A DNA stretch of 64,000 nucleotides. It comes from Escherichia coli (lineage in GTDB: Bacteria > Pseudomonadota > Gammaproteobacteria > Enterobacterales > Enterobacteriaceae). Position numbers and translations under genes: made by a program. The notes beneath the pieces are model-generated. The model searched no databases, was not told the origin of the DNA, and saw only the letters and a list, made by a program, of their open reading frames with translations. The DNA lies in assembly GCF_003790525.1 (NCBI RefSeq), contig NZ_CP033635.1. One strand, given 5' to 3'. Positions within the stretch are counted from its first letter, which is position 1, and each line of letters opens with the position of its first letter. Of the stretch, positions 20,691-25,960 are shown piece after piece.

Positions 20691-21161
20691 TTACTCGATG
20701 ACGACCAGCGGCTCGTCAAATTCTACCGGTTGTCCACTTTCGACCAGAATTGCTTTCACGGTACCGGATTTGTCCGCTTCGATCTGGTTCATCATTTTCA
20801 TGGCTTCAACGATGCACAGGGTATCGCCCACGTTGACTTTCTGACCCACTTCGATGAACGCTTTTGCGTCCGGGCTTGGGGTGCGGTAGAAAGTACCAAC
20901 CATCGGGGAACGTACGATGTGACCACTGATTTCCGCTGCTGCTGGCGCTTCCATGGAAGGAACGGTCGCCGGAGCGGCTGCGTTAGATTGAGCTGGCTGC
21001 TGCATCATTGGTGCAGCGTAAGCTTGTTGCATCACAGGGAAACTTGCGGCAGGAGCTGCACGGCTAATGCGTACTGACTCTTCGCCTTCAGAAATTTCCA
21101 GTTCGGAGATGCCTGATTCTTCAACCAGCTCGATCAGTTTTTTAATCTTACGAATATCCAT
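20691..21161 (-). CDS. accB: biotin carboxyl carrier protein
   Basis: 156 aa with biotinylation motif [10 protein letters not shown]. Confidence 0.95.
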
Positions 21162-21930
21162 GAGTGGGTTCCGTACTCTTTGTTTAGTGTGATTGTGACA
21201 GGCGTTTCACCGCCGTCTGTAAAGCGTATGCCCCGACAGCTGTATGCATAGCGATAAATTCCAGCAGGCCGGGACGCCGGTCTATTTTGCCCCAGAGTGT
21301 CAATGTTAGACTTGACGGACATTGTGCAGCGATCTGCTGCTATCCTCCGGCAAAAAACAAAATATACCTTCGTTGCGCCAATGTCACCTTTTCCGCAGCG
21401 CAAAAACTGCGTCAGGGAGGACGAGGTCGCACATTATAACGATTTCGTAGCAATTGGCAGCTAAATACTGGTCTTATCAGGGAAGATAATCAACAGCTAA
21501 CATGTAAATAACCTTCAACACCGTGTAATTTGCAACAAGCCGCACAATTCACGAAATTAGCGCCATCATCGACGGAACTTCTTATAACGTAAGGTGAAAA
21601 GCTGTAAAGCCAGCCCTGCGAAGATGAGGGGCTGCAATGAGATAATCTTCACAGACCACAAATAATGTAGGGATGCCAGGATCGCGACAAGATAGACGAC
21701 ATTACGCAGCGGTTGCTGGGGATTACCCAATTTTCACTGCATCGTCTGGATAGATGTGAATGCTAAAGCACGCAAAATCAACCGCCTGATAATGCTCAGC
21801 ATGAAATAGGTTTAAGTGGTTAATTTGTAATCAAATAAAATCAGATTATTCCCCCCATTTTGCAGAAGGTAAACTGTTTTGTCAGGCGGCAGTGCGGCTA
21901 TGTGATGCATTCAGAATTTGCCGCGTGACA

Positions 21931-21963
21931 ATAAAAAAGCCGATTTGGTGGCAAAATCGGCTT
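21931..21963 (-). terminator. rho-independent terminator downstream of the 276-aa ORF
   Basis: On minus strand GCCGATTT-loop-AAATCGGC hairpin followed by TTTTTT. Confidence 0.7.
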
Positions 21964-22026
21964 CGGTGAGTTTGCAGCATTCATCACATACTCCGACAAG
22001 CTTTTTCAAGCATGACGGAGGTTGCG

Positions 22027-22857
22027 TTAATGCAAGGTTTCTACCCAGGGATAAAAGTGACCGTTACGGCGGATGAATATCTGTGTTGTCAGAGGATGGT
22101 CATCCTCACGGAAGCATTGTTCTGTTAACTGTCGTAATGCGCTGAGATTTGCTGGCTGATCATTGTAGGTGAAAAACAGTTTTCCTCTGGAGGGAACAGT
22201 CACTAACAGGTCGCCGCATTCAGGATCGGGTGATTGCACCCAAAGATCGTCAATGAGCATCAGACTGGGCTCATAAGTACCCCCTGCGGAGATAACGGCA
22301 ACTTTTCCAGCGTTTGCGCCTGTATCAACGATTTCAGCCGAAACTTCCGGCAATATTTGCTTCAAATTATTGATGGCTTGTTCGCGGTCAATGGTCACTT
22401 CGTAGCGCATCAGATAGCGCATGGTTTCGCTACCATCTTCAGCAAACAAGATAATTAACTCATCGTTAAAGTCTTCCCAGGCAAAATCCAGCGAGGCGTT
22501 GAGGATCTCTGGATCAGATTCATACTGGCTAAGCTGTTGGCGAACGGTATCCAGCCAGGCTTTTTCTTTAATCACCGGAACAATACAGCGCCCGGTCGGC
22601 AGCATTTCTGCAAGCTGTTTCAGCATATCTGCAGCCACTTCTTCCAGCGGGTCTGGTGCGGCTTGATAACGTTTGTAGGCATCATCAAGAGTGATTTCCA
22701 CCGTTTGGTGACCCGTATCAATGCGCATCAATTTATGGTCAGTCGAAATCATGACTTTCCAGTTTGGATGATGTTGTACAACTTCATGACCAAGATGTTC
22801 GACGAAAGCTGTCCGGCTAACCGCTTTTCCCGTTAACCGATTGAATAATGATTTCAA
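22027..22857 (-). CDS. hypothetical protein, 276 aa, TTG start in the maximal ORF
   Basis: Uninterrupted ORF with GAGAGGGA Shine-Dalgarno 8 nt upstream of TTG; alternative in-frame ATG at codon 36; own terminator; no family recognised. Confidence 0.6.
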   Translation of the reverse strand: MKSLFNRLTGKAVSRTAFVEHLGHEVVQHHPNWKVMISTDHKLMRIDTGHQTVEITLDDAYKRYQAAPDPLEEVAADMLKQLAEMLPTGRCIVPVIKEKAWLDTVRQQLSQYESDPEILNASLDFAWEDFNDELIILFAEDGSETMRYLMRYEVTIDREQAINNLKQILPEVSAEIVDTGANAGKVAVISAGGTYEPSLMLIDDLWVQSPDPECGDLLVTVPSRGKLFFTYNDQPANLSALRQLTEQCFREDDHPLTTQIFIRRNGHFYPWVETLH

Positions 22858-22893
22858 AATGAGTTCCCTCTCTTATTAATCCTTGCTAAATGG

Positions 22894-23868
22894 TTAGTTA
22901 ACCTTCACCAGCGTGCGCCCCTGGATCTGGTTATTAATGATGGCCTCGGCAAACTTCGGTGCCTCTGCCAGAGATATCTCTTTTGCCGCCTGGGTATAGA
23001 ATGATTCCGGTAAATCGGCGACCAATCGCTGCCAGGCTTGTGCGCGGCGTGCTGGTGGCGTCATTACTGAATCCACCCCCTGTAAACGGACATTACGCAG
23101 AATAAATGGCATGACCGTGGTTGGCAGAGTAAAACCACCCGCCAGACCACAGGCCGCCACGCAGCCGCCGTAATTCATTTGCGCCAGCACTTTTGCCAGC
23201 ACTTTGTCGCCAACGGTGTCAATTGCCCCAGCCCAGACTTGTTTTTCCAGAGGACGGGATTCGGCAAACTCATCGCGAGGGAGAATACGGCTGGCACCTA
23301 AACTTTTCAGATATTCATGGGTACTTTCGCGACCGGAAACGGCAACGACCTGATAACCCAACTTATGCAGCAGCGCCACGGCGGTACTGCCGACGCCACC
23401 ACTGGCACCCGTCACGACAATCTCCCCATCCTGCGGGCGAACACCGGCATCTTCCAGCGCCATCACACACAACATGGCGGTAAAACCGGCAGTACCGATA
23501 ATCATTGCTTTACGCGCGTCCAGCCCTTGCGGCATGGCAACCAGCCAGTCACCTTTCACTCGCGCCTGTTCCGCCAGCCCACCCCAGTGGTTTTCACCAA
23601 CGCCCCAGCCAGTGAGTAACACCTCCTGACCGGCATGAAAACGCGGATCTTCGCTGGTGCGTACAGTTCCGGCAAAATCGATCCCAGGAATCATCGGAAA
23701 ATTACGGATGATTTTTCCCTTACCGGTAATTGCCAGCGCATCTTTGTAGTTCAGGCTCGACCAGTGAACATCAACCGTGACATCGCCCTCCGGCAGGCGA
23801 CTTTCGTCCAGAGTCTGTACCGATGCGAGAGTTTTGCCGTCCTGCTGTTCTAAAAGTAACGCCTGCAT
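22894..23868 (-). CDS. acuI: acrylyl-CoA reductase / MDR-family NADPH oxidoreductase
   Basis: 324 aa, recognised as YhdH/AcuI. Confidence 0.9.
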   Translation of the reverse strand: MQALLLEQQDGKTLASVQTLDESRLPEGDVTVDVHWSSLNYKDALAITGKGKIIRNFPMIPGIDFAGTVRTSEDPRFHAGQEVLLTGWGVGENHWGGLAEQARVKGDWLVAMPQGLDARKAMIIGTAGFTAMLCVMALEDAGVRPQDGEIVVTGASGGVGSTAVALLHKLGYQVVAVSGRESTHEYLKSLGASRILPRDEFAESRPLEKQVWAGAIDTVGDKVLAKVLAQMNYGGCVAACGLAGGFTLPTTVMPFILRNVRLQGVDSVMTPPARRAQAWQRLVADLPESFYTQAAKEISLAEAPKFAEAIINNQIQGRTLVKVN

Positions 23869-24019
23869 AAGTGGTCCTCATGTGCATGATGGATTGGAAA
23901 ATAATTTCTGAAGACTATACTCGCTAATGGAAAAGCAAAGCCGATGAAGCGCAATAAATTGCGAGATAAATCTGATTTGCTAGTATGCCCGCTTCCTCAC
24001 TATCGGAGTTAACACAAGG

Positions 24020-25960
24020 ATGAGATTAACGACGAAATTTTCGGCCTTTGTTACGCTGCTCACCGGGTTAACAATTTTTGTGACTTTGCTGGGCTGTTCG
24101 CTAAGTTTCTACAACGCCATTCAGTATAAGTTTAGTCATCGTGTTCAGGCGGTGGCGACGGCGATCGATACCCACCTGGTGTCGAATGACTTCAGCACAT
24201 TAAGGCCACAAATTACCGAATTAATGATGTCGGCAGATATCGTTCGTGTAGACCTGCTCCATGGTGATAAGCAGGTTTATACCCTGGCCAGAAATGGTAG
24301 TTATCGTCCGGTTGGCACCAACGATCTATTTCGTGAACTGAGCGTTCCGTTGATAAAGCATCCGGGGATGTCGCTGCGTCTGGTTTATCAGGATCCGATG
24401 GGCAACTATTTCCATTCGTTGATGACCACCGCGCCGCTCACGGGGGCGATTGGCTTTATCATTCTTATGCTCTTCCTGGCGGTACGCTGGTTACAACGGC
24501 AACTTGCCGGGCAAGAATTGCTGGAAACCCGGGCTACTCGTATCTTAAACGGTGAGCGTGGCTCTAATGTGTTGGGAACCATCTATGAATGGCCGCCCAG
24601 AACCAGCAGTGCGCTGGATACGCTGCTTCGTGAAATTCAGAACGCACGCGAACAACACAGCCGTCTTGATACGCTGATCCGCTCTTATGCCGCCCAGGAC
24701 ATGAAAACCGGCCTCAATAACCGACTCTTCTTCGATAATCAGTTAGCAACGTTACTGGAAGATCAGGAGAAAGTAGGTACCCACGGGATCGTGATGATGA
24801 TTCGTCTGCCGGATTTCAATATGTTGAGTGATACCTGGGGGCACAGCCAGGTTGAAGAACAGTTCTTCTCTCTGACGAATCTGCTGTCGACATTTATGAT
24901 GCGCTACCCTGGCGCACTGCTGGCGCGTTACCACCGCAGTGATTTTGCTGCGCTGTTACCGCACCGAACGTTAAAAGAGGCAGAGAGCATCGCCAGTCAG
25001 TTAATCAAAGCCGTCGATACCTTGCCGAACAATAAAATGCTCGATCGCGACGATATGATCCACATTGGTATCTGTGCCTGGCGTAGTGGTCAGGATACCG
25101 AGCAGGTAATGGAACATGCAGAGTCTGCCACGCGTAATGCGGGATTGCAGGGCGGCAATAGCTGGGCTATTTACGATGACTCGTTGCCTGAAAAAGGACG
25201 CGGTAATGTTCGCTGGCGTACGCTTATCGAGCAAATGCTGAGTCGCGGCGGCCCGCGCCTTTATCAAAAACCGGCGGTTACTCGCGAAGGTCAGGTTCAT
25301 CATCGCGAACTCATGTGCCGCATCTTCGATGGTAATGAAGAGGTTAGCTCGGCGGAGTATATGCCGATGGTCTTGCAGTTTGGCTTATCGGAAGAGTATG
25401 ACCGCCTGCAAATCAGCCGTCTGATTCCACTATTGCGTTACTGGCCGGAGGAAAATCTGGCGATTCAGGTTACCGTTGAGTCGCTGATTCGCCCGCGTTT
25501 TCAGCGTTGGCTGCGCGATACGTTAATGCAATGTGAAAGATCGCAACGAAAACGCATAATTATTGAACTTGCAGAGGCCGATGTAGGTCAACATATCAGT
25601 CGCTTACAACCTGTTATTCGTTTAGTGAATGCTTTAGGGGTACGGGTAGCCGTCAACCAGGCTGGTTTGACGCTGGTAAGCACCAGTTGGATCAAAGAAC
25701 TTAATGTTGAGTTACTCAAGCTCCATCCGGGGCTGGTCAGAAACATTGAGAAGCGAACGGAGAACCAGCTGCTGGTTCAAAGCCTGGTGGAAGCCTGCTC
25801 CGGGACCAGCACCCAGGTTTACGCCACCGGCGTGCGTTCGCGAAGCGAGTGGCAGACCCTGATTCAGCGCGGTGTTACAGGTGGGCAAGGGGATTTTTTC
25901 GCGTCCTCACAGCCACTTGATACTAACGTGAAAAAATATTCACAAAGATACTCGGTTTAA
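24020..25960 (+). CDS. csrD: RNase E specificity factor CsrD (degenerate GGDEF-EAL)
   Basis: 646 aa with N-terminal TM segments, recognised as CsrD/YhdA. Confidence 0.9.
   Translation: MRLTTKFSAFVTLLTGLTIFVTLLGCSLSFYNAIQYKFSHRVQAVATAIDTHLVSNDFSTLRPQITELMMSADIVRVDLLHGDKQVYTLARNGSYRPVGTNDLFRELSVPLIKHPGMSLRLVYQDPMGNYFHSLMTTAPLTGAIGFIILMLFLAVRWLQRQLAGQELLETRATRILNGERGSNVLGTIYEWPPRTSSALDTLLREIQNAREQHSRLDTLIRSYAAQDMKTGLNNRLFFDNQLATLLEDQEKVGTHGIVMMIRLPDFNMLSDTWGHSQVEEQFFSLTNLLSTFMMRYPGALLARYHRSDFAALLPHRTLKEAESIASQLIKAVDTLPNNKMLDRDDMIHIGICAWRSGQDTEQVMEHAESATRNAGLQGGNSWAIYDDSLPEKGRGNVRWRTLIEQMLSRGGPRLYQKPAVTREGQVHHRELMCRIFDGNEEVSSAEYMPMVLQFGLSEEYDRLQISRLIPLLRYWPEENLAIQVTVESLIRPRFQRWLRDTLMQCERSQRKRIIIELAEADVGQHISRLQPVIRLVNALGVRVAVNQAGLTLVSTSWIKELNVELLKLHPGLVRNIEKRTENQLLVQSLVEACSGTSTQVYATGVRSRSEWQTLIQRGVTGGQGDFFASSQPLDTNVKKYSQRYSV

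Follow-up and report, generated by a model that had tools for sequence, protein, structure and literature searches.

The open reading frame (ORF) of 276 codons that lies on the minus strand between acuI and the accB leader, in a stretch of 64,000 nucleotides of the E. coli contig NZ_CP033635.1 (the window), is very probably an intact allele of the K-12 pseudogene yrdF. It would be a selectively maintained gene with a cytoplasmic product of the DUF1444 superfamily, and the survivor of a yrdF-msrP-msrQ cassette that has otherwise decayed. The identity and the evolutionary history of yrdF are secure. A "hypothetical protein" of about one in eight E. coli genomes can now be named after a curated K-12 pseudogene, the intact form of which encodes it.

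Positions 21700-23000 of the window matched E. coli SMS-3-5 with 100 % identity in a megablast search of 5,426 complete E. coli genomes. The uninterrupted minus-strand frame of 831 nt reported in a preliminary description of this DNA was found at 22027-22857, and RefSeq contains a CDS with the same coordinates, TTG start included (WP_000838294.1, "hypothetical protein"); the annotation of the gene elsewhere in E. coli reads "DUF1444 domain-containing protein". K-12 MG1655 has two curated pseudogenes between acuI (yhdH) and accB, namely yrdF (b4697, 143 nt) and yrdE (b4646, 394 nt). The preliminary description called the ORF unassigned, which does not hold given the RefSeq entry and the K-12 remnant curated as yrdF; its tentative statement that K-12 has no gene here was right in substance, as K-12 keeps a 143-nt pseudogene and no intact gene. 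A literature search on yrdF and yrdE yielded nothing beyond one table footnote, in which both are termed pseudogenes (PMC7648144). By blastn, the match with K-12 runs from the end of acuI through nucleotides 1-143 of the ORF and resumes at window position 21858, the intervening 856 bp (21859-22714) being swapped in K-12 for 101 bp without counterpart in the window. Over the 216 nt that comprise the end of acuI and yrdF nucleotides 1-143, K-12 and the window are 96.8 % identical, and yrdF of K-12 starts 36 nt past the acuI stop, at the same position and start codon as in the window. The features of the locus are listed in Table 1.

Table 1 Features of the yrdF locus, with positions in the window and the basis of each assignment
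Feature	Position	Strand	Description and basis
acuI (yhdH)	22894..23868	-	Co-directional gene upstream of yrdF; ORF listing and RefSeq
Shine-Dalgarno sequence GAGAGGGA	22865..22872	-	7 nt 5' of the TTG (22857-22855); reading of the sequence
Intact yrdF CDS	22027..22857	-	276 aa, 831 nt, TTG start; ORF listing and RefSeq CDS with the same coordinates
Segment kept by K-12-type genomes, yrdF (b4697)	22715..22857	-	ORF nucleotides 1-143; K-12 annotation, blastn match ending at query position 216
Stop-proximal stem-loop without T-run	21990..22021	-	Folding of 21985-22030 (46 nt): -19 kcal/mol, z -5.4
msrP (yedY) copy, 5'-end relic, frameshifted and truncated	21884..21985 (about)	-	Aligned to a contig of the E4208 clade (L012); blastn to the E4208 locus (L014) up to 6957
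Terminator-like hairpin, 11-bp stem and T-run	21926..21964	-	Scan and folding; inside the msrP relic
msrQ (yedZ) copy, 3'-part relic, equivalent of K-12 yrdE, with in-frame stops	21566..21865	-	blastn to the E4208 locus (L014), 8169-8477

The 856 bp specific to the ORF were present in 669 of the 5,426 complete E. coli genomes, 666 of which hold at least 80 % of it, each time as a single chromosomal copy; no plasmid copy was found in this set. The full gene is carried by ~12 % of the complete genomes, among them O103, O111, and O145 strains as well as isolates from numerous hosts, and most of it is lost in the other ~88 %. An intact 831-nt CDS with a distinct protein accession was found at the same place in EC10 and in four genomes spread down the identity ranking. 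E. albertii has yrdF at the same position as well, the copy of the type strain being 92 % identical, starting with TTG, and stopping five codons early. A scan of species-representative genomes with two peptide patterns returned only E. albertii and one Haloferula, a narrowness that is partly technical, and a word-indexed protein search gave just 12 relatives. As yrdF is missing from most E. coli, the gene is dispensable, and its loss in 88 % of the genomes means that any benefit is small or conditional.

Where the gene is present it is, from its substitution pattern, under purifying selection. By the method of Nei and Gojobori, dN/dS of the SMS-3-5 gene is 0.165 against EC10, 0.144 against E. 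albertii, and 0.127 against a homolog of the E4208 clade (P0003); it is 0.185 between two distant paralogs, and values of 0.03-0.05 were obtained for acuI for comparison. All seven sampled Escherichia alleles, six from E. coli and one from E4208, are open and start with TTG. The 201 variable sites are distributed as 48/34/119 over codon positions 1/2/3, a clear third-position bias. An ORF that is open by chance can be dismissed, as the frame is conserved and intact across alleles, with this bias and a dN/dS of about 0.12-0.18. The preliminary description had proposed to compare the region with K-12 and other E. coli by BLASTN, and to give up the ORF as a gene if it was absent or disrupted in close relatives with no expression evidence; absence or disruption was indeed found in ~88 % of the genomes, but where present the gene is intact and shows purifying selection.

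A decaying yrdF, deprived of its partners, without function, and still open only for want of a disabling mutation, is unlikely. It would fit with the dead msrP and msrQ copies downstream and with the fact that ~88 % of the complete E. coli genomes are without most of the gene; truncated or frameshifted variants also occur in the protein database (P0005, 198 aa), and the E. albertii reference copy stops five codons early. These observations are outweighed by the dN/dS of 0.14-0.17 among three genomes without msrPQ at the locus (SMS-3-5, EC10, and E. albertii), by six E. coli alleles, each with a protein accession of its own, that are all 831 nt and intact, and by the third-position bias of the variable sites. 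Selection between genomes that both lack msrPQ at this position argues for a function of yrdF that is independent of msrPQ; as selection persists where the neighbouring msrPQ copy is dead, the role of the gene cannot depend on that copy.

The origin of the locus can be read from Escherichia sp. E4208. Its gene order (locus L014) is acuI, yrdF, an Oxidored_molyb gene (msrP-like), a Ferric_reduct gene (msrQ-like), accB, accC, yhdT, and panF, with mreDCB and csrD on the opposite strand ahead of acuI. The yrdF product of E4208 (P0174) has 276 aa, starts with TTG, and is 78 % identical to the SMS-3-5 homolog; the proteins encoded by the two genes that follow share 93 % identity with MsrP and MsrQ of K-12. 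The same adjacency and orientation of yrdF, msrP, and msrQ, the latter two intact, were found in E4208 and two further assemblies (L014-L016), and only relics of msrP and msrQ are left in the window. Two different frames of the msrP relic translate into ...TEADFATKSAFL and GFFIVTRQILNASHSRTAA*, respectively. The msrQ relic, annotated as a pseudogene by RefSeq in other strains, still contains an ORF of 54 aa that is 69 % identical to residues 143-196 of E4208 MsrQ. When a surviving msrP copy at the yrdF locus was sought in E. coli genomes, only the canonical msrP, with ~81 % identity, was found among the matches listed.

Relative to the E4208 reference, SMS-3-5 is complete as far as 28 nt beyond the msrP ATG, and its sequence sets in again ~97 codons into msrQ. 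K-12 and ATCC 25922 keep yrdF nucleotides 1-144 (ATCC 25922 to ~155) and resume ~68 codons into msrQ. The SMS-3-5 and K-12 alleles each hold sequence that is missing in the other, from which separate deletions from a fuller ancestor follow. Hence yrdF was the first gene of a yrdF-msrP-msrQ cassette between acuI and accB in an Escherichia ancestor, a cassette still whole in the cryptic-clade strain E4208. One deletion took almost the entire msrP copy and msrQ up to about codon 97, sparing yrdF and giving the SMS-3-5-type allele; a different one, from yrdF nucleotide 144 into msrQ, produced the K-12-type allele. The arrangement in E. albertii is similar to that of the SMS-3-5-type allele.

A recent horizontal acquisition of yrdF by the SMS-3-5 lineage, with insertion between acuI and accB, would account for its patchy presence in E. 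coli (12 %). Paralogs with 61-63 % identity do occur beside KfrA_N, Aca2, and IS110 genes in surroundings that resemble an island or a plasmid, and the DNA identity between E4208 and SMS-3-5 is only 78 % for yrdF compared to 87-89 % for the flanking genes. Such an insertion is nevertheless very improbable: K-12-type genomes keep nucleotides 1-143 at the same position and with the same start, so that absence there is a deletion, the gene occupies the same position in E. albertii and E4208, and neither mobile-element genes or repeats flanking yrdF nor a plasmid copy were found.

Two hairpins are located 3' of the intact gene. The preliminary description assigned the ORF its own terminator about 65 nt downstream. 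A hairpin followed by a T-run is present, starting 62 nt past the yrdF stop, with a stem (21964-21936) that has 4 G-C pairs in 11 bp and is followed by the T-run, the pattern of a rho-independent terminator; the element is not one dedicated to yrdF, however, as it is part of the decayed 5' end of the msrP coding sequence. The 76 nt around it fold with -21.1 kcal/mol (z -2.5), and the two terminator-like sites in the region compare with 3.3 expected from shuffles, i.e., their number is not above expectation. The hairpin aligns to the E4208 msrP codons for ...TAESAFFM, where the T-run is coding and the left arm is unpaired; the structure is thus a by-product of decay, whatever its present role. 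The stop-proximal stem-loop is stronger than the terminator-like hairpin and was absent from the preliminary description. Its stem is conserved in E. albertii and also in E4208, in the latter with a compensatory change of CUCCG/CGGAG to CUCCA/UGGAG. The hairpin lies between yrdF and msrP. Transcription or mRNA decay would probably stop at the two hairpins; the stop-proximal one may stabilize the 3' end or may formerly have modulated read-through into msrP. An Rfam scan of 21000-24100 gave two chance-level matches only (E 0.4-0.6).

On the 5' side, the gap between the end of the acuI stop codon (22894) and the TTG of yrdF is 36 nt. The upstream layout given in the preliminary description, with a Shine-Dalgarno sequence, a TTG, and the earliest in-frame ATG at codon 36, was confirmed, albeit with spacings of 36 and 7 nt instead of 37 and 8 nt. 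A minus-strand scan of the gap revealed neither a sigma-70-like nor a terminator-like site, which makes co-transcription with acuI the simplest reading and acuI the probable source of the yrdF transcript. The gene would thus probably be read from the acuI transcript across the short gap, using its own Shine-Dalgarno sequence and TTG.

Initiation at the ATG of codon 36 would yield a protein of 241 aa, the form deposited for E. coli in some database records (P0002; A0A2H4TUI1), and ATG is the commoner start codon. Several observations favour the TTG and leave the shorter form hardly credible. The strong Shine-Dalgarno sequence linked to the TTG is conserved, GAGAGGGAACTCATT (Shine-Dalgarno sequence and spacer) being the same in the E. 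coli alleles shown, E. albertii, and E4208. In the paralogs with 61-63 % identity, GAGAAGGAACTC is followed by an ATG one codon 5' of the position of the yrdF TTG, and their start falls at the aligned N-terminus. Within codons 1-35, the sampled alleles of E. coli and E4208 vary as in coding sequence, with 5/2/15 variable sites at codon positions 1/2/3, and L8, G10, K11, A12, and F18 are invariant as far as a homolog with 38 % identity. In the AlphaFold2 model a helix (residues 15-29) and a strand (34-37) of the N-terminal domain are predicted with confidence, the block having a pLDDT of 90-94. From sequence and model, then, the TTG is the favoured start, and we infer the true N-terminus from it.

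The preliminary description found no motif in the protein that could be placed; it can now be assigned to the DUF1444 superfamily from a profile search, the Pfam matches of its homologs, and a fold search. A direct scan with Pfam DUF1444 (PF07285) was not significant (i-E 0.025, 14.6 bits), the alignment being colinear, with residues 29-270 against positions 15-254 of the 264 of the model. The NCBIfam model NF010189/PRK13668 for the YtpQ equivalog gave 20.7 bits (E 2.5e-4), below its cut-off of 221 bits. A profile was built from five close relatives and run against 1.84 billion representative proteins, which resulted in 2,027 matching representatives at E<=1e-3 and 164 at E<=1e-30; the enterobacterial clade scored E<1e-90 and the rest E>=1e-46, with a gap in between. 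The Pfam DUF1444 model matched 127 of 134 aligned homologs at E<=0.001.

With the alignment of these 134 sequences AlphaFold2 yielded a model with a pLDDT of 91; a run with 5 sequences (pLDDT 56) was discarded in its favour. The top full-length matches of the model in a Foldseek search of AFDB50 were DUF1444/YtpQ-family proteins (E 1e-21 to 1e-16, TM ~0.55-0.6), modest TM scores that fit with the hinge-like N-terminal domain described for CgoN (PMC10965808). No solved structure with the same architecture was found, a profile search of the PDB sequences giving a best E of 0.12. A hydrophobic N-terminus is lacking in the Escherichia protein, as opposed to 86 of the 134 aligned sequences, mostly distant homologs, and a lipobox-like motif is present in 25. 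By transitive homology and predicted fold, YrdF is a divergent member of the DUF1444 superfamily, and it is predicted to be soluble, to lack a signal peptide, and to have three domains.

The one characterized member, from which YrdF is far removed, is YtpQ/CgoN of Priestia megaterium, which was identified via the genomic association of ytpQ with the genes cgoX, cpfC, and chdC for coproporphyrin-dependent heme synthesis; the protein binds FAD and catalyzes a slow, oxygen-independent oxidation of coproporphyrinogen III in vitro, with a kcat of 0.63 per min (PMC10965808). In B. subtilis, ytpQ is activated by Spx, and in a mutant oxidative damage to proteins is increased and the regulons of Fur and PerR are derepressed (PMC3176815). 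For the DUF1444 homolog of S. aureus the contribution to heme synthesis is minimal at most, and no function has been established (PMC6620371).

That YrdF is an ortholog of CgoN is suggested by their common superfamily and full-length three-domain architecture, and CgoN does have a demonstrated activity in vitro (PMC10965808). The score of YrdF is, however, 20.7 bits against the 221-bit cut-off of the equivalog, and cgoX, cpfC, chdC, or other heme-synthesis genes were not found beside yrdF, the neighbours being acuI, msrP/msrQ or their relics, and accB. E. coli makes its heme by the protoporphyrin-dependent route and, to our knowledge, lacks the two enzymes, coproporphyrin ferrochelatase and decarboxylase, for which the CgoN product would be the substrate. 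Taken with the minimal contribution of the S. aureus protein to heme synthesis (PMC6620371), this makes orthology most improbable, and the candidate was rejected on the equivalog score, the neighbours, and the heme route of the host.

YrdF might rather be a redox or oxidative-damage accessory protein, a tentative suggestion that the analysis puts somewhat below an even chance and that is weak as it stands. It is based on msrPQ, an operon for the repair of methionine sulfoxide, adjoining yrdF in Escherichia and on Bacillus ytpQ, which belongs to the Spx thiol-stress regulon and has an FAD-binding product. As 86 of the 134 aligned sequences look exported, a flavin-dependent role in the cytoplasm that is common to all members fits poorly. 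A more specific proposal, which we consider improbable, is that cytoplasmic DUF1444 proteins of the YrdF type are flavin- or tetrapyrrole-handling partners of MsrQ-type membrane cytochromes and might serve as a dedicated cytoplasmic electron donor or as a heme-loading factor for MsrPQ. It draws on the adjacency in one Escherichia lineage and on the data for Bacillus (Spx regulon, FAD binding, Fur and PerR). If true, the DUF1444 superfamily would have a general part in oxidative-damage defence rather than in heme synthesis. In six contexts of more distant yrdF homologs that were checked, neither msrPQ nor heme genes were found beside the homolog, and the linkage of yrdF and msrPQ, seen only in Escherichia, may be coincidental.

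The practical value of these results is modest: yrdF is an ordinary, already annotated gene of a known family and not a new kind of system. The yrdF/yrdE pair of K-12 can now be understood as the remains of a three-gene cassette with a second msrPQ operon, affected by at least two independent deletions, and residual interest lies in this decayed cassette and in a possible link between DUF1444 proteins and oxidative damage. With yrdF, the DUF1444 superfamily, which exceeds 2,000 sequence clusters and whose function is disputed, also has a Gram-negative representative that is amenable to genetics.

In comparison with known systems, yrdF is closest to the pseudogene of the same name in K-12, with which it has the locus between acuI and accB, the TTG start, and the 36-nt spacing in common. 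The two differ in that codons 49-276 are gone in K-12 and the stump is fused to msrQ sequence (yrdE), whereas the gene in the window is complete. K-12 yrdE is the counterpart of the msrQ relic at 21566-21865, and the K-12 junction keeps ~89 nt of msrQ that are not present in the window. The yrdF gene of E4208 is located directly 5' of msrP and msrQ genes that resemble those of the methionine sulfoxide reductase operon msrPQ (yedYZ) of K-12, but the canonical K-12 msrPQ locus (hprRS-hiuH-msrPQ-zinT) is without a DUF1444 gene. With the DUF1444 proteins (PF07285; UPF0354, YtpQ-like) YrdF shares a length of ~270-290 aa, a colinear full-length alignment, and the three-domain predicted fold. The Escherichia clade nevertheless stands apart, with ~30 % identity to the closest relatives beyond the enterobacterial group, and YrdF is without the signal peptide or lipobox found in many of the homologs nearest to it. 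YtpQ/CgoN of Priestia megaterium and Bacillus subtilis has the superfamily, the cytoplasmic location, and the domain architecture in common with YrdF, which is not its ortholog by score and resides in a host without the coproporphyrin-dependent heme pathway. Both have redox or oxidative-stress genes as neighbours: ytpP in Bacillus (PMC3176815) and msrPQ in Escherichia.

The region downstream of yrdF in the window carries relics of a second msrPQ operon, made up of a frameshifted 5' end of msrP and a 3' part of msrQ that is interrupted by in-frame stops (see table below). A 54-aa ORF inside the msrQ relic is 69 % identical to the C-terminus of MsrQ. The K-12 pseudogene yrdE is the counterpart of the msrP and msrQ relics taken together. 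The deletion junctions of the K-12-type allele (L004, the K-12 locus, 2139-2239) and the SMS-3-5-type allele (window 21859-22714) differ, and each allele retains sequence that is absent from the other, which points to at least two independent losses of the yrdF-msrP-msrQ cassette. Alternatively, alleles may have been swapped by recombination between lineages.

In Escherichia sp. E4208, msrP and msrQ at the acuI locus (L014, 6876-8477) share 93 % protein and 85-88 % DNA identity with the canonical msrPQ of K-12. This is as close as the match between the flanking orthologs, csrD (87 %) and acuI (89 %), whereas the DNA identity of E4208 yrdF to SMS-3-5 yrdF is only 78 %. The msrPQ genes at this locus may have undergone gene conversion with the canonical operon or may represent a relocation of it.

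The stem-loop at the yrdF stop has a folding energy of -19 kcal/mol (z -5.4; 46 nt folded, 21985-22030). It is kept in E. albertii and, by way of the compensatory change CUCCG/CGGAG to CUCCA/UGGAG, in E4208, where it is located between yrdF and msrP.

Coordinates of the stem-loop, the msrPQ relics and further yrdF homologs
Feature	Location	Strand	Remarks
Strong stem-loop	window 21990-22021	-	no T-run; directly 3' of yrdF stop
Relics of second msrPQ operon	window 21566-21985	-	
msrP 5' end relic	window, about 21884-21985	-	frameshifted
msrQ 3' part relic	window 21566-21865	-	in-frame stops
Paralog clade	L006 3898-4731; L017 8001-8834		61-63 % identity; 277 aa; ATG start
More distant homolog	L008 2268-3112; L009 926-1770		~38 % identity; adjoins metF and ydjM
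Two DUF1444-like paralogs	L011 5857-8255		Haloferula sp. BvORR071; 641 bp apart

The 61-63 % paralogs adjoin a sigma-54 PTS regulator, and their genomic surroundings resemble those of an island or a plasmid (KfrA_N, Aca2_YdiL, DUF2857, and IS110 and IS3 transposases). The homolog next to metF and ydjM is split by an identical frameshift into 236 aa and 44 aa in each of two independent samples, and may be another decaying copy. A full-length relative with 36 % identity is present in Leminorella richardii (AFDB).

Protein P0012, from a Logan assembly, is a 205-aa chimera of full-length AccB and the K-12-type yrdF stump (...MRIDTPLNSYY) that probably arose through misassembly or engineering. The yrdF protein is named 'Initiation of DNA replication' in UniProt A0A376NW46 and in the NCBI record behind P0005, a 198-aa variant; no support for this name was found in the present analysis of the protein.

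An N-terminal hydrophobic segment was observed in 86 of the 134 homologs retrieved by profile search with the yrdF clade (alignment A2), nearly all of the 86 being DUF1444-like homologs outside the enterobacterial clade, and 25 sequences of this alignment contain a lipobox-like motif. From these N-termini, much of the DUF1444 family appears to be exported. Apparent export of this kind is difficult to square with the family acting in general as an FAD-dependent cytoplasmic oxidase. Of the two Haloferula paralogs, which are separated by a 185-aa ORF, one carries a signal of the lipoprotein type, the other a cytoplasmic-type N-terminus (MNQLFGKLLSLFGG...).
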